Of a stretch of DNA of 64,000 bases, positions 50,372-54,790 are shown in pieces. The translations under genes were made by a program, and so were the position numbers. Numbering within the stretch: position 1 is the stretch's first letter; every line of letters starts with the position of its first letter. The stretch covers positions 5,497 to 69,496 of the forward strand of contig JBDSKZ010000027.1 in NCBI GenBank assembly GCA_039916625.1. The letters are read 5' to 3'. This DNA is from Pedococcus sp. Its GTDB lineage: Bacteria > Actinomycetota > Actinomycetes > Actinomycetales > Dermatophilaceae. Under the pieces are notes generated by a model that saw only the letters and a program-made list of their open reading frames with translations, was not told the DNA's origin and did no database searches.

Positions 50372-53300
50372 ATGCGACTGCAGCTCACCGTCACGCACCG
50401 TAGGCCATCGTGCCCGGGCACACAGGCACTGTCGGTGGTGGATCTCGAGGTGGACGCACCGACGGGCTCGACAGCGGCGGAGCTGATGGAGGCCCTCGCC
50501 CAGCACCTCGGCCTTCCTGGCACCTCCCCACACCCCCGAGGTCGTCCGTCCGGAGACCAGGTCCCTGGCGAGGAGTCGCTGAACCTGGTCGTGGGCGGGG
50601 TCGTCGTCGCGCCGGGCGCCATCGTCGGCCTGCCGCCGCTGCTCGACGGAGCAGCCCTGGCACTTCACCCCCGAACCCTGTTCAAGGACAGCAGCACTCG
50701 CTCGTCCGCGCGATGCCGGTCAGCCGTCGTCCTCGCGGTCACGCACGGTCCGGACTGCGGTCGAGTCATCGACCTGCGACCCGGTCGCCACACCGTCGGT
50801 CGGTCCGGTGAGGCGGACATCTGCATCGACGACCCGCGCCTGTCCAGGCGCCATACCGAAGTCTGCGTGGACGCCCACGGAGTGACCCTGCGCGACCTGG
50901 GCTCGACCAACGGCACCCGCGTCGACGAGGCGCCCGTGGGTGACGAACCGGTGACCGTCACCACCGCCAGCGTCATCCACCTCGGCGACACCATGGTGGC
51001 CCTGCGCCACACCGGGGCCGTCCCCGCCGCCACGACCACCACGGGCGAGGGCACCCTCGCCGTGAACCGGCGACCGCGGGTCCTGGATCGCCACGCCCCG
51101 GCCAGCATCGCCCTCCCTGCCCCTCCACAGCAGCCGCGCCCCACCAGGGTCCCGTGGCTGGCCGTCCTCCTGCCCGTCCCGGTCGCCGCCGTGCTCGCCG
51201 TGGTGGTCGGCCCCACCATGCTCGCGTTCGCCCTCATGGGCCCGGTCCTCATGGTGGGCACCGCGCTGAGCGACCGGTGGGGTGCCCGTCGGACGTATGC
51301 GGCGGACCTGGTGGCGCACGACGCAGAGCTCCGCACGGCCAGGGACTGCATCGAGGCCGCCTGCCGGCACGAGACGCGCGAGCTGACCAGGTCCTTTCCC
51401 GGGCCGGCCACGGTCCTGGGCATCGTCAGCGGCCCCACGGAGCGGCTGTGGGAACGCCGCCGCGATGACGACGACGCTCTCGTCGTGACGATCGGTCGAT
51501 GTCGTCAGGATGCCTCGCTGCGTCTCCTGCGACAGGCGACGGCCGGAGTACCAGAGCAGCAACCGCAGCTGCACGACGCACCGTGCACCCTGTCCCTCGG
51601 GGAGGTGGGCGTGCTCGGTCTGTGCGGCGAGCCCTCCGCGGTGGCAGCCTCCGCGCGTTCGCTCGTCGGCCAGCTGCTCACGCTGCACTCACCTGCCGAC
51701 CTCGGCGTGGTGTGCCTGCTGCAAGCCGAAGAGCTGCGGAACGAGTGGGTATGGCTGGGCCGGGTTCCACACTGCCATCATGCTTTTCGCCGTCGAGCGG
51801 GTCCCGTGCCGGCCGTCCTCGGCCCGGATACGACGACGGTGCATGCCACCGTGGCTGCCCTCGCGACGACCATCCGCGAGCGTCTGGCCAACCATCGCAG
51901 CACGCCGTGGAGCGGGTCGACCACCCTGGTGGTGATCGACGGGGCCGGGGCCTTCCGGGCGGTCCCGGGCCTGGCGACGGTGCTCGCGGACGGTCCTCGG
52001 GTGGGCGTCGTCTGCCTCACGCTCGGGGCCGAGCGCCGCGAGCTGCCGCACGAGGCCGGTGCAGTCCTCGACCTGCCACCCCACGGCCCCCCGGCGCTCT
52101 CCCTGCCGGGCCACCGGCACGACCGTCTCGTGGCCGACGGCGTCGCACTCGCCTGGTCCGAGCGGCTGAGCCGGTCCCTGGCTCCACTGCGTGATGCGAC
52201 ACCCTCGGAGGGACCAGCAGCGTTGCCGGTCGCGGTCGGCCTGCTGGGCTGCCGTTCGCCGCTCGACGGCGCTCCGACCGACCCAGTGACCGAGCTCCTC
52301 ACGGGAAGGTCGCTCGCCGAGGCCTGGCGGCACCGACCCCACAGCACCACCGTTCCGCTCGGGGTCTGCGGCACCGGAACGTTCTCGATCGACCTGGCGT
52401 CAGACGGTCCGCACGTCCTCGTGGGTGGCACCACCGGCGCGGGGAAGTCGGAGCTGTTGCGCACCCTCGTGGCAAGCCTGGCGCTGCACAACACTCCGCA
52501 GCACCTGTCGTTCGTGCTGGTCGACTACAAGGGCGGTGCTGCGTTCCGCGAGTGCGCCAAGCTCCCGCACGTCGCTGGCGTCGTCACCGACCTGGACGAC
52601 CATCTCGCGGCGCGGGCACTGACGTCCCTCACTGCCGAGCTCACTCGGCGAGAGCGGCTCCTGCGGGACGCAGGTGCAGCTGATTTCGTCTCCTACCAGG
52701 CAAGCCCGGCCGGCGAGGGGACACCCTTGGCGCGTTTGGTCGTCGTGGTCGATGAGTTCCGAGCACTCGCTGAGGAGCTCCCCGCGTTCGTGGACGGGCT
52801 GGTCCACGTCGCCGCGCTCGGTCGCTCGCTCGGCATCCACCTCGTCCTCGCGACCCAACGTCCTGCCGGTGTGGTGACCGCCGACATCAAGGCCAACGTC
52901 AACCTCCGCATCGCCTTGCGCATGCGGGACCGAACCGACTCCGAGGACGTCGTCGACAGCCCCGCAGCCGCGTCACTGGACCCGTCGGCTCCTGGTCGTG
53001 CGTATGCCCGGGTGGGTGGCTCCCCACTCCTCGAGTTCCAGTCGGCCCACGTCGGCTCCCGGGTGGTCGAGCCGAGCACGGAGTCCGTTCGGGTTCGGCG
53101 GTGGACGTTCTGCCCGTCGACCCCTTGGCCAGTCGGCACCACTGCCGTCGAGCAGCACACCGAGCTGACCGCCATCGTCGCAGCGGTGCAACAGGCCACG
53201 ACCGTCGCGCGCCTCGAGCCCGCGCCCGCGGCATGGTTGCCACCGCTGCCTGCCCACGTGCCCCACTGCTCGCTGGACGAGCCTCCGGACGCGTTCACGG

Positions 53301-54790
53301 TGCACCTCGGTCTCGTGGACGTGCCCGAGCAGCAACGTCGCGAGTCGCTGGCCCTCGATCTGCGCGACCGCGGCCACTGGGCAGTGGTGGGGAGTCCTGG
53401 TAGTGGACGCACGACAGCCCTGCTCACCGTGGCTCGGTCGCTGTGCGGCAGACGCGGGCCGGAGTCGCTGCACGTGTACGCCGTCAGTGGCGGGGGCCTG
53501 GCGGCCCTCGGGTCGCTGCCCCACGTGGGGGCCCACATCGACTGGACGGACACCAACCGGGTGGAGCGACTGGTGACCAGGTTGTCGGCCGAGGTCGCCG
53601 GACGTCGAGCCGCCCTCACCCGGCGCGGCGTCACGACGCTGGTCGAGTGGTGGCGCAGCACCGACTGTGGCAGCGCACCCCCACCGATCCTGCTGCTCGT
53701 CGACGACTGGGACCTGGTCGCCGGTCGCCATGACGACCTGACCCTCGCCTCGCTCGTCGACCGCTTGCTCGTCCTGCTGCGCGAGGGCGAGGCGGTCGGC
53801 CTCACCGCCGTCCTCGCCGGCGACCGCACGTTGGGGTTCGGGCGCGCGGGCGGTGCGGTCAGCAACCGTGTGGTGCTGCACCTGACCGACCCTGCCGACG
53901 CGGTCCTGCTGGGGCTGGCGCCCTACCAGCTCGCCGCGCTCAAGGCCCCCGGACGAGGCCTGACCAGCCAAGGACACCAGGTCCAGCTCGCCCTTCCGCC
54001 CGACCTGCCGCCACTGCCCTCCTTGGGACCAGGGGCGACCTGTGCCGTGGTGCCAGCGCCCTTCAACGGCAGGCGGGCACCGCTGCACGTCGACGCCTTG
54101 CCGCCCGTGGTGCGCGAGGACGAGCTCGTCCTCGCCTCGGGACGGACAGACAGCGTTGCGCTCGGGATCGGGGGCGACGACTCGACGGTGCTCGGGCTCG
54201 ATCCGGGGCGCGATGGTCGACGCTGGCTCGTCACGGGCGCGGCAGGCTCTGGCGTCTCGACGACGCTGCTCCTCATCGTGCGGGGTCTCGCCGCGGCAGG
54301 TCGGCCCGTGGCAGTCGTCGGCCACCGCGGTGGCCCCCTCGACGCGCTGCGGGGCGATCCCGCGGTTGCCGCGTGGTGCGACGGGGCGAACACCGCCTCC
54401 CTCGTCGAGGCGCGTCAGCGGGAACCGTCGCTGGCGGTCGTGGTCGACGCCGCCGACGAGCTGATCGACCACCCCGTCGAGACTGTCCTCCGGGAGGTCG
54501 CGCACCTCGTCGACCGGGACTGCGGACTGCTGGTCGTCGGGGCCAACGCGACGGCCCTGTCATCGATGTACCGCGGGATCGCGTACGAGGTAGCGAGGCA
54601 CCGCACCGGGGTCCTGCTCGGCCCCACGTGGACAGCCGAAGGCGGCGTCCTCGGAGTGCGCGCGCCAGTGGACCGAGCGGCTCGACCGGGCCGCGGTCAT
54701 GTGGTGCAACGGGGCTCGTGTACCCCGCTGCAGGTCGCCCTTCCCGACAGCCCCCCGATCCCGGTCGCTGCTCCCCGGGCTGCGGGGTAG
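50372..54790 (+). CDS. FHA-domain, membrane-anchored FtsK/SpoIIIE (EccC/EssC-like) ATPase with three P-loop domains
   Basis: The FHA domain reads RHTVGRSGEADICIDDPRLSRRHTEVCVDAHGVTLRDLGSTNGTRV. A double TM follows (WLAVLLPVPVAAVLAVVVGPTMLAFALMGPVLMVG). Domain 1 has a canonical Walker A (GGTTGAGKSELL), Walker B (VVVDEF) and LATQRP. Domain 2 has GSPGSGRTT with LLLVDDWD. Domain 3 has GAAGSGVST with VVVDAADE. I chose ATG 50372 (MRLQLTV...). The track start at 50222 would leave only about 20 bp to tadA. Confidence 0.85.
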   Translation: MRLQLTVTHRRPSCPGTQALSVVDLEVDAPTGSTAAELMEALAQHLGLPGTSPHPRGRPSGDQVPGEESLNLVVGGVVVAPGAIVGLPPLLDGAALALHPRTLFKDSSTRSSARCRSAVVLAVTHGPDCGRVIDLRPGRHTVGRSGEADICIDDPRLSRRHTEVCVDAHGVTLRDLGSTNGTRVDEAPVGDEPVTVTTASVIHLGDTMVALRHTGAVPAATTTTGEGTLAVNRRPRVLDRHAPASIALPAPPQQPRPTRVPWLAVLLPVPVAAVLAVVVGPTMLAFALMGPVLMVGTALSDRWGARRTYAADLVAHDAELRTARDCIEAACRHETRELTRSFPGPATVLGIVSGPTERLWERRRDDDDALVVTIGRCRQDASLRLLRQATAGVPEQQPQLHDAPCTLSLGEVGVLGLCGEPSAVAASARSLVGQLLTLHSPADLGVVCLLQAEELRNEWVWLGRVPHCHHAFRRRAGPVPAVLGPDTTTVHATVAALATTIRERLANHRSTPWSGSTTLVVIDGAGAFRAVPGLATVLADGPRVGVVCLTLGAERRELPHEAGAVLDLPPHGPPALSLPGHRHDRLVADGVALAWSERLSRSLAPLRDATPSEGPAALPVAVGLLGCRSPLDGAPTDPVTELLTGRSLAEAWRHRPHSTTVPLGVCGTGTFSIDLASDGPHVLVGGTTGAGKSELLRTLVASLALHNTPQHLSFVLVDYKGGAAFRECAKLPHVAGVVTDLDDHLAARALTSLTAELTRRERLLRDAGAADFVSYQASPAGEGTPLARLVVVVDEFRALAEELPAFVDGLVHVAALGRSLGIHLVLATQRPAGVVTADIKANVNLRIALRMRDRTDSEDVVDSPAAASLDPSAPGRAYARVGGSPLLEFQSAHVGSRVVEPSTESVRVRRWTFCPSTPWPVGTTAVEQHTELTAIVAAVQQATTVARLEPAPAAWLPPLPAHVPHCSLDEPPDAFTVHLGLVDVPEQQRRESLALDLRDRGHWAVVGSPGSGRTTALLTVARSLCGRRGPESLHVYAVSGGGLAALGSLPHVGAHIDWTDTNRVERLVTRLSAEVAGRRAALTRRGVTTLVEWWRSTDCGSAPPPILLLVDDWDLVAGRHDDLTLASLVDRLLVLLREGEAVGLTAVLAGDRTLGFGRAGGAVSNRVVLHLTDPADAVLLGLAPYQLAALKAPGRGLTSQGHQVQLALPPDLPPLPSLGPGATCAVVPAPFNGRRAPLHVDALPPVVREDELVLASGRTDSVALGIGGDDSTVLGLDPGRDGRRWLVTGAAGSGVSTTLLLIVRGLAAAGRPVAVVGHRGGPLDALRGDPAVAAWCDGANTASLVEARQREPSLAVVVDAADELIDHPVETVLREVAHLVDRDCGLLVVGANATALSSMYRGIAYEVARHRTGVLLGPTWTAEGGVLGVRAPVDRAARPGRGHVVQRGSCTPLQVALPDSPPIPVAAPRAAG

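Follow-up and report, generated by a model that had tools for sequence, protein, structure and literature searches.

A predicted EssC/EccC-type ATPase with fused ubiquitin-like and FHA domains, recurrently linked to WXG100 and Tad genes in actinobacteria

In Actinomycetota, type VII secretion is usually equated with the ESX systems (type VII secretion system a, T7SSa), to which the T7SSd of Olsenella and Bifidobacterium is a recent addition. The motor proteins EccC and EssC form multimers in the membrane. Of their ATPase domains the first (D1) is the essential one, while substrate binding and the regulation of D1 fall to the C-terminal domains. In the core of the Bacillus subtilis system determined by cryo-electron microscopy (cryo-EM), free YukD, a ubiquitin-like (Ubl) protein, is held between the FHA domains and the domain of unknown function (DUF) of YukB, and upon loss of YukD the FHA domains become mobile and the assembly weaker; in T7SSa the Ubl domain of EccD binds the same DUF surface on EccC (PMC12637312). 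Actinobacterial YukD domains have been described as always fused to EccD, which has 12 transmembrane (TM) helices (Iyer et al. 2006), and the T7SSg and T7SSh systems of Bacillota are 'always encoded adjacent to' Tad genes (PMC11217815). Here we report on a gene from a 64,000-nucleotide stretch of Pedococcus sp. DNA (contig JBDSKZ010000027.1), the whole of which is referred to as the window. Lying on the forward strand at 50372..54790, it encodes an ATPase of 1472 aa in which a Ubl β-grasp domain, an FHA domain, two TM helices, a DUF (also termed D0) and the domains D1, D2 and D3 follow one another. We think it probable that this ATPase is the translocase motor of an actinobacterial branch of its own within the type VII (EssC/EccC) group, working by the mechanism proposed below.

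The affinity with type VII motors emerged from several kinds of sequence comparison. Against the NCBIfam hidden Markov models (HMMs), the ATPase scored 453.5 bits with EssC (TIGR03928, cut-off 778.4), 359.2 bits with EccCa (TIGR03924, cut-off 509.15) and 292.3 bits with EccCb (TIGR03925, cut-off 346.55), the matched regions being aa 231-1209, 249-895 and 938-1324, respectively; the FtsK model NF007615 gave 72.7 bits against a cut-off of 1566. Since the EssC, EccCa and EccCb cut-offs were missed, the protein is best regarded as a relative outside these curated equivalogs. Among proteins of solved structure, sequence matches in PDB were obtained with T. curvata EccC (4NH0, 9e-79, aligned over three stretches), EccC5 (1.6e-55), YukB (5e-54) and FtsK (1e-20, restricted to D1), and with D1 alone the scores were 153 bits for YukB, 138 for T. 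curvata EccC, 115 for EccC5 and 85 for FtsK. No Pfam match to the FtsK gamma domain was found in the ATPase, and its layout is that of the EssC/EccC core, with two N-proximal TM helices, a DUF and three tandem FtsK-like P-loop domains. A first-pass annotation of the window, made from the letters alone, had proposed a type VII motor architecture for this gene, and the HMM scores, the structural database matches and the layout all bear this out; a grouping with DNA translocases, which would have spoken against it, was not found, because EccC, EccC5 and YukB rank far ahead of FtsK. Taken together, these comparisons identify the protein as a predicted EssC/EccC-type type VII motor and not a DNA translocase.

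To place the family among the described subtypes, a neighbour-joining tree was computed from D1 only, using ten T7SSa-j reference ATPases rebuilt from a supplementary alignment recovered by optical character recognition (OCR; Garrett et al. 2024, PMC11217815), and this tree is indicative only as the reference sequences contain OCR errors. In this rough, D1-only tree the family is monophyletic and lies outside the T7SSa-j representatives. The D1 identity is 58% within the family and 40–49% to the EssC-like types b-j, with values of 41.5% for TsdC, 43.5% for Staphylococcus aureus EssC and 33% for EccC5. The tree thus fits what the HMM scores indicate, an EssC/EccC relative beyond the described subtypes. 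We found no published description of a Ubl-FHA-EssC fusion or of a Tad-linked family of this kind in the open-access literature.

The open reading frame (ORF) runs from 50177 to 54790 stop to stop, with a GC content at third codon positions (GC3) of 0.84 that is uniform along its length, in a window of about 71% GC; it is a real ORF, coding in appearance. Both an alignment of 53 homologues and the 80 genomic relatives, from the two clades described below, show the N-terminal motif MRLxLTV to be conserved. Because this motif begins the protein in the homologues, the ATG at 50372 is the supported start. On a near-identical metagenome contig from ENA (ERZ1407734:contig-100_23, about 99% identity to the window), the automatic gene call starts at a GTG at 50435, 21 codons later, giving 1451 aa and dropping the first β-strand of the Ubl domain. 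Such shortened calls may be part of the reason why the fused Ubl went unnoticed. The nearest genomes for the ATPase are those of Pedococcus and Phycicoccus (Intrasporangiaceae), at 49–65% protein identity, and metagenome proteins reach 75–78%; the databases label these relatives as 'FtsK/SpoIIIE domain-containing protein' or 'DNA segregation ATPase'. The motif, clade and neighbour counts given here refer to the 80 genomic relatives, whose loci carry numbers prefixed with L. The family was found in Micrococcales, Streptosporangiales, Streptomyces, Propionibacteriales, Jiangellales and Jatrophihabitans-like metagenome-assembled genomes (MAGs), and also in Solirubrobacter.

The two TM helices proposed in the first-pass annotation were supported by hydropathy: they form a membrane hairpin (51146..51265, +; aa ~259-298) seen as a single continuous hydrophobic stretch with a central G-P turn and a Kyte-Doolittle window score >1.8 over aa 259-296, and this segment aligns with the TM region of EccC5. 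Next comes the DUF/D0 (51266..52291, +; aa ~299-640), a fourth NTPase-like domain in addition to the three P-loop domains of the first-pass annotation, with neither Walker motifs nor a P-loop in its sequence. The EccCa model (aa 249-895) extends over it, EccC5 and T. curvata EccC align with it, and the EccCa and EccC5 matches together span aa 242-895. D1 (52292..53086, +; aa ~641-905; PF01580, 6e-47) displays a Walker A motif GTTGAGKSE at aa 686 (nt 52427-52453), a Walker B motif VVVVDEF and the motif LATQRPAG, and these are invariant in 80/80 relatives. It is predicted by its motifs to be catalytically competent, and is the sole domain keeping every catalytic motif. D2 (53249..54016, +; aa ~960-1215), which aligns with EccCb and with D2 of EssC, has the Walker A lysine replaced by arginine (GSPGSGRT at aa 1007, nt 53390-53413) and a Walker B of LLLVDDW. 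In D3 (54119..54766, +; aa ~1250-1465) the lysine is replaced by valine (GAAGSGVS at aa 1289, nt 54236-54259) and Walker B reads VVVDAAD. Walker B is therefore also degenerate in D2 (DD) and D3 (DA), and the catalytic glutamate is gone in both. The earlier reading of three P-loops, with only that of D1 canonical, was correct including their positions, but it had also described the tandem domains as carrying LATQRP, a motif that is confined to D1; at the equivalent position D2 has LTAVLAGDR and D3 has LLVVGANAT.

Arginine replaces the Walker A lysine of D2 in 79 of the 80 relatives; at the corresponding position of D3, arginine is found in 74/80, valine only in the window and L001-L003, and threonine in one. 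Given these frequencies, the degenerate P-loops of D2 and D3 are a family-wide trait, neither a sign of decay nor peculiar to the window gene. All domains are similarly constrained, with 45–83% identity between the window and its relatives, and as D3 is conserved about as well as D2, it is not decaying. In a published alignment (OCR'd, PMC11217815), D2 of S. aureus EssC appears as G-R-T and D3 is degenerate in several subtypes, and this like degeneracy suggests that one catalytic and two regulatory modules are typical of the wider EssC/EccC family. The division into catalytic and regulatory domains to which the first-pass annotation drew attention therefore stands as an EssC/EccC trait, but it is nothing special to this gene, being seen throughout the 80 relatives.

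The N-terminal Ubl domain (50372..50671, +; aa 1-100) contains a disordered loop at about aa 47-69. An AlphaFold2 model of aa 1-106, built on 53 homologues, had a predicted local distance difference test (pLDDT) score of 84 and a ββαβββ topology, and in a Foldseek search of PDB with this model the top 50 matches were all of ubiquitin, SUMO or ISG15 type, with target TM-scores (TMt) of about 0.6–0.74; YukD and EccD structures were not among these 50. A 237-aa model of the Ubl and FHA regions together had given only FHA matches in the fold search, and the separate aa 1-106 model was used for the Ubl domain. When the domains of 34 relatives were combined into a sequence profile, this matched ubiquitin-like PDB chains with an E-value of 2.6e-6. 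The model thus predicts a β-grasp fold at the N-terminus of the ATPase, and the possible Ubl domain of the first-pass annotation gains support from the model, the Foldseek matches and the profile. As to its more specific likeness to YukD and the N-terminal domain of EccD, Pfam YukD (PF08817) is the commonest family match among the Ubl domains of the relatives (8/34, best E 3.9e-5), but the window's own sequence gave no match to it. In the alignment of the relatives the Ubl domain is found in both clades of the family.

The FHA domain (50723..51013, +; aa 118-214), likewise foreseen in the first-pass annotation, was recovered by Pfam (PF00498, aa 141-205, E 8e-15, 55.5 bits), and its model is closest to the actinobacterial phosphothreonine (pThr) readers OdhI, GarA and FhaA, with a TMt of 0.8–0.9. 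The pThr-binding residues GR, SxxH and NG are intact, and the corresponding G143, R144, S158, H161, N180 and G181 are invariant in the 53 homologues. The domain is accordingly a predicted phosphothreonine reader. At window positions 144, 158, 161 and 180 the family splits into two clades, of which clade A (about 22/80 loci) keeps R-S-H-N and clade B has S-P-A-x. Given the degenerate pocket residues, the clade B FHA domain is probably unable to bind pThr. Clade B is also the clade richest in adjoining WXG100 genes.

To characterize the gene neighbourhoods, the ORFs of the 80 relative loci were clustered, with '+'-strand families antisense to '-'-strand Tad genes discarded as high-GC artefacts. 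Two families of ~95-aa proteins encoded directly beside the ATPase gene proved to be WXG100 proteins by Pfam (34 and 72.5 bits, cut-off 27.3). Flanks of at least 8 kb upstream and 3 kb downstream were available for 44 loci, of which 31 have WXG100 and 27 have TadA; at least one of the two is present in 43/44, both in 15/44 and neither in 1/44. A reciprocal test with a clade-A WXG100 profile retrieved 80 loci, 76 of which carry the ATPase gene adjacent, the other four being short contigs; this retrieval used narrow peptide patterns and returned only MAGs of Jatrophihabitans, Jiangellales, Frankiales and Pseudonocardiales type, and it does not bear on WXG100 elsewhere in Intrasporangiaceae genomes. 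The ATPase had been called an orphan in the first-pass annotation, and this term fits the window locus, which has no other T7SS gene, but not the protein family, because WXG100 adjoins the ATPase gene in most relatives. Proteins with the Pfam T7SS_signal domain (PF21725, 39.7 bits) are encoded in 11 loci. In the Streptomyces loci, small helical genes are each paired in tandem with a large gene, and a Ser/Thr kinase gene adjoins; we read the pairs as putative effector modules. In the relatives' loci that were annotated, no neighbour of EccB/D/E, MycP, EssA/B, EsaA or TsdH/TsdI type was matched.

The linkage to Tad genes is similarly recurrent. TadA-type relatives occur in 40/81 sources, in 29 of them upstream and divergent, and about half of the 80 loci, spanning several actinobacterial orders, have a TadA gene accompanied by TadB, TadC, Flp and TadE genes at a distance of no more than 10 kb. 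This linkage persists in loci whose TadA shares just some 35% of its residues with that of the window, so that the Tad operon, already named as the partner locus in the first-pass annotation, holds up as a recurrent and usually divergent neighbour. In two MAG loci (L149:606-5857 and L150:1506-6900) the ATPase gene (-) is followed after about 70 bp by a WXG100 gene (+) and after a further 80 bp or so by TadA (+) and the rest of the Tad operon, the TadA of both being 72% identical to the window TadA. L148 and L152 are arranged similarly, and their 73-74-aa Flp gene shares the motif DVPGWVMIT with the window. Given the gene order of L149 and L150, the ancestral module likely consisted of the Tad operon, WXG100 and then the ATPase. 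We also noted that in L148-L150 and L152 the WXG100 gene appears to lie immediately upstream of tadA, a direct merger of the type VII and Tad gene sets.

The window itself retains the Tad side of this arrangement. A divergent intergenic region of 171 bp (50201..50371, unstranded), the site of WXG100 in some relatives, separates the ATPase gene from tadA, and a simple scan of it revealed no sigma-70-like promoter and no terminator. The operon on the opposite strand begins with a TadA/CpaF-type pilus ATPase of 407 aa (48977..50200, -; PF00437 T2SSE, 3e-38), which scored 255 bits with TIGR03819, under the cut-off of 373, and continues with TadB-like (48057..48965, -; PF00482 T2SSF, 4e-13) and TadC-like (47107..48060, -; PF00482 T2SSF, 1e-18) platform proteins. 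Next comes a Flp-type pilin candidate of 66 aa (46884..47084, -; ...ERGDVPGWVMITLMTAGLVAVLW...), which is a called gene in the near-identical contig and shares its motif with L148/L152, and which had no HMM match; it is followed by three TadE/pseudopilin-like genes (46476..46826, 46012..46479 and 45545..46015, all -) with matches to PF07811 TadE and weak matches to PF13400 Tad in the precomputed annotation and a weak 26 bits with TIGR03816. By these matches the operon comprises the predicted Tad/Flp set of TadA, TadB/TadC, Flp and TadE-type pseudopilins; TadZ/CpaE, CpaB/RcpC and the prepilin peptidase TadV were not found in 45545..50200 nor in the other scanned ORFs of the window. On the type VII side, two HMMs made from the relatives' WXG100 genes found no match in six-frame ORFs of at least 40 aa across the window, and Pfam scans of its scanned GC3-supported ORFs found no WXG100, EccB/D/E, MycP or EssA/B/EsaA, in agreement with the first-pass annotation, which had seen none of EccB/D/E, MycP, EssA/B or WXG100. 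The closest relatives (L001-L003, L016 and L063) likewise lack WXG100 and other T7SS core genes within 10 kb. The window copy is a reduced, WXG100-less member of the family. Given that relatives carry WXG100 between the ATPase gene and tadA, this looks like a derived state in which a WXG100 gene once located there was lost.

Some further observations concern individual loci. The clade-B Tad operons (L013-L079, for example L019:2-9306; Streptosporangiales) carry a fixed extra gene set: a CpaB-like gene with a weak match (TIGR03177, E 8.6e-5, below cut-off), a gene read as TadZ/ParA-like from sequence alone with no HMM match, and a terminal gene for a ~900-aa TM-LysM-BTAD protein, present in 31 loci, whose BTAD domain scored 23.5 bits in Pfam and whose LysM was recognized by eye. 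In Solirubrobacter taibaiensis, which lies outside the class Actinomycetes (L059:361-8635), a Ser/Thr kinase gene lies upstream with its stop overlapped by the ATPase gene, after which come a WXG100 gene and then a protein with PG_binding_1 and CHAP domains; this looks like a compact module of kinase, motor, WXG100 and cell-wall hydrolase. L082, a 40% identical relative, has an anti-sigma/sigma factor pair directly after the ATPase gene, in place of PNPOx.

The left half of the window was annotated by direct Pfam scans. Apart from the Tad operon, the Pfam scans of GC3-supported ORFs across the window identified only genes for glycogen, trehalose and α-glucan metabolism, phospholipase D-like and thioredoxin-TPR proteins, methylmalonyl-CoA mutase, MeaB, thiolase, a Ser/Thr kinase, PNPOx, PdtaS, MOSC and an NAD-glutamate dehydrogenase. 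The α-glucan/trehalose set (4830..19851: GlgX-like, glucan phosphorylase, GlgE, TreS-like amylase, maltokinase, GlgB and phosphoglucomutase) is ordinary housekeeping. Downstream of the ATPase gene lies a core block encoding a WhiB-family regulator (56117..56365, +), known from the precomputed annotation of the near-identical contig, a PdtaS-type histidine kinase (56475..57968, -), a MOSC protein (58037..58756, -) and the NAD-glutamate dehydrogenase (58753..63636, -). This whiB, pdtaS and gdh block is shared even with L082, which has neither Tad nor WXG100 genes, and the ATPase locus is chromosomal rather than mobile. A 160-aa membrane protein (55273..55755, -) with hydrophobic segments and no Pfam match was considered as a possible membrane partner of the ATPase and rejected, since it travels with the whiB/pdtaS block in close relatives only; it was assigned to the core synteny.

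Two other candidates, both raised in the first-pass annotation, were also set aside. Between the Tad pseudopilin genes and the thiolase gene lie two giant ORFs on the - strand, one of 2262 aa (38435..45223) and a second of about 1257 aa that runs from an ATG near 38438 down to 34665. The start of the second is apparently coupled translationally to the stop of the first, and for both no signal peptide was seen by eye and no Pfam, NCBIfam or PDB sequence match was found. Phycicoccus sp. Soil802 (L003) has them at 81% identity, and Pedococcus bigeumensis (L001) lacks them at that site; with only 1 of the 80 relative loci having one, they do not qualify as conserved partners of the ATPase. The Ser/Thr kinase at 30572..32200, suggested as a candidate FHA partner, is the kinase nearest to the ATPase gene but is about 18 kb away, and because it sits among housekeeping genes, in a block with thiolase, MeaB and methylmalonyl-CoA mutase, it was rejected as a dedicated partner.

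In the mechanism that we propose for a type VII translocase motor of this kind, the ATPase would multimerise in the membrane like EccC and EssC, and D1 would hydrolyse ATP and drive the export of folded helical substrates. Instead of hydrolysing ATP, D2 and D3, with their arginine or valine P-loops and no catalytic glutamate, would regulate the motor or receive substrates. Between the FHA domain and the DUF would lie the fused Ubl domain, packed as is YukD in B. subtilis and the EccD Ubl on EccC; a Ubl-FHA unit would dock in cis on its own DUF, and neither a separate EsaB/YukD nor EccD would be needed to fix the cytoplasmic base. The FHA domain of clade A would read phosphothreonine and so link assembly or activity to Ser/Thr-kinase signalling. 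In the window genome the linked WXG100 gene would have been lost while the ATPase stayed divergently paired with the Tad operon, and the ATPase may use WXG100 or other substrates encoded elsewhere, or may serve the Tad apparatus directly. The recurrent co-location of type VII and Tad genes argues for a functional link, because it spans actinobacterial orders and is seen independently in the T7SSg and T7SSh of Bacillota. Several points weigh against our interpretation. Gene linkage is association, not mechanism. All three curated EssC/EccC cut-offs were missed, and no membrane partner resembling EccB/D/E, EssA/B or EsaA was seen in the scanned loci. With no WXG100 or other T7SS component in the window or its closest relatives, WXG100-type export is unproven for this organism. 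D3 of the window has lost even the arginine, having valine in its place and DA in Walker B, and the case for the Ubl domain is made by a predicted model and a profile, the window's sequence falling short of Pfam YukD.

A bolder version of this interpretation, which we offer tentatively and with considerable doubt, is that the family adds a third type VII lineage to the T7SSa and T7SSd of actinobacteria, one whose ATPase has taken up both the Ubl assembly factor and a pThr reader. It would descend from an ancestral Tad-merged module with WXG100 directly upstream of tadA, the two machines would act as one export device coupled to contact or adhesion, and the window ATPase would operate with Tad and without WXG100. 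To our knowledge, WXG100 is held to be a universal T7SS component. It may alternatively be that the motor has been repurposed, the ATPase of the window lineage having ceased to run a WXG100-type system and being now part of the Tad machine or a phospho-regulated accessory to it, for example by exporting pilus-associated proteins without Sec signals or by scaffolding assembly. We consider this unlikely, even though the window and its closest relatives lack WXG100 and retain the divergent Tad pairing, the change of the D3 P-loop from arginine to valine or threonine is found only in the window subclade, the pThr residues of the FHA domain are intact in the window clade and degenerate in the WXG100-rich clade B, and in Bacillota, too, T7SSg and T7SSh have Tad genes as neighbours. 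The WXG100 genes could lie elsewhere in the genome, however, and basal members of the same clade (L007, L010, L012, L059 and L148-L152) combine an intact FHA domain with WXG100; moreover, no known Tad system needs an EssC-type ATPase, and about half of the relatives are without Tad genes inside 10 kb.

The remaining explanations fare less well. That the ATPase belongs to a conventional ESX-4-like T7SSa (with EccB/D/E and MycP) or to a T7SSd encoded elsewhere in the genome appears quite improbable: the best solved relative is indeed T. curvata EccC, EccCa and EccCb together reach 651 bits, and T7SSd ATPases of Actinomycetota also have a pThr-competent FHA (PMC11217815), but the window ATPase carries its own Ubl, which in T7SSa is supplied via EccD, EccC lacks an FHA domain, and TsdC has two FHA domains and no Ubl. 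The D1 tree, subject to its OCR-derived references and restriction to D1, also sets the family apart from both EccC5 and TsdC, and no EccB/D/E, MycP or TsdH/TsdI-type neighbour was found in the annotated loci of relatives. A DNA translocase of the FtsK/SpoIIIE/TraB kind, acting for instance in conjugation or Tad-dependent uptake, is suggested by the database names FtsK/SpoIIIE and DNA segregation ATPase and by the best match of the neighbouring TadA, to a model described as 'conjugal transfer-associated ATPase'. This is largely refuted, as the FtsK score is 73 bits against 453 for EssC, the PDB match to FtsK (1e-20) is limited to D1 and there is no gamma domain, the TM hairpin, DUF and three tandem P-loop domains follow the EssC/EccC layout, the relatives have WXG100 and T7SS_signal neighbours, and the gene lies in conserved core synteny (whiB, pdtaS, gdh) with no mobile element. 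Hardly more credible is the idea that the gene is what remains, in decay and without function, of a secretion system that was lost: the missing WXG100 partner gene and the absence of catalytic residues from D2 and D3 could be taken that way, but the 1472-codon ORF is intact with even GC3 and all D1 motifs in place, every domain including D3 is conserved (45–83% identity), and the FHA binding residues are invariant.

If the ATPase is indeed a type VII motor of a distinct branch, a separate and widespread lineage would have been hidden under the label 'FtsK/SpoIIIE domain-containing protein'. Its cis fusion of Ubl, FHA, TM and DUF would then be a natural 'Rosetta stone' for the YukD-FHA-DUF contact seen by cryo-EM, and points to a minimal T7SS base independent of both EccD and EsaB. 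The recurring Tad linkage makes the connection between T7SS and Tad testable in culturable soil actinomycetes, and the clades with and without a pThr pocket offer a built-in comparison for Ser/Thr gating of secretion. The window gene, having no WXG100, would be a good test of whether an EssC-type motor works free of WXG100.

Comparison with the described systems brings out a combination of features proper to this family. FtsK and SpoIIIE share the D1 fold and P-loop family (PF01580), but have a single motor with a gamma domain, whereas the window protein has three tandem domains, no gamma domain and low FtsK scores. The T7SSg and T7SSh systems are comparable in their recurrent co-location with Tad; they differ in that their ATPases lack FHA, their Ubl is a separate gene, and they belong to another phylum and ATPase clade. 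EccC of T7SSa (T. curvata EccC, EccC5) comes from the same phylum, includes the best solved relative and has the same core of TM, DUF, D1, D2 and D3, and a Ubl domain, from EccD, binds its DUF. Unlike the window ATPase, it has no FHA and no fused Ubl, its D2 Walker A still has the lysine (the OCR'd alignment reads GSGKT), and its partners EccB/D/E and MycP are not neighbours in the window or in the annotated loci of relatives. TsdC of T7SSd (Olsenella, Bifidobacterium; PMC11217815) is likewise from Actinomycetota, has FHA domains with GR/SxxH/NG, and is partnered by WXG100, as are relatives of the window ATPase, in a few of which a Ser/Thr kinase also adjoins the ATPase (in an overlapping operon in L059, convergent in L074), as in T7SSd. 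However, the FHA domains of TsdC are two in number and T7SSd reportedly lacks a Ubl, against a Ubl and one FHA in the window family (PMC11217815); its D2 and D3 P-loops are fully degenerate (OCR), against G-R-[ST] in the window family; and TsdH/TsdI-type genes were not seen and the window D1 is not sister to TsdC in the OCR-derived, D1-only tree. EssC/YukB of T7SSb differs in having two FHA domains without pThr residues (Table S1, PMC11217815), where the window ATPase has one with the residues kept, in having a separate EsaB/YukD in place of a Ubl fused in cis, and in belonging to Bacillota, with EssA, EssB and EsaA partners that were not found with the actinobacterial window ATPase. With EssC/YukB the ATPase nevertheless shares the FHA domain, two TM helices, the DUF and three FtsK-like domains, of which D1 is the most similar and D2 and D3 are degenerate in both; in T7SSb, too, a YukD-type Ubl contacts the FHA and DUF, and as in T7SSb, WXG100 proteins and effectors with helical signals adjoin the motor in relatives of the window ATPase.

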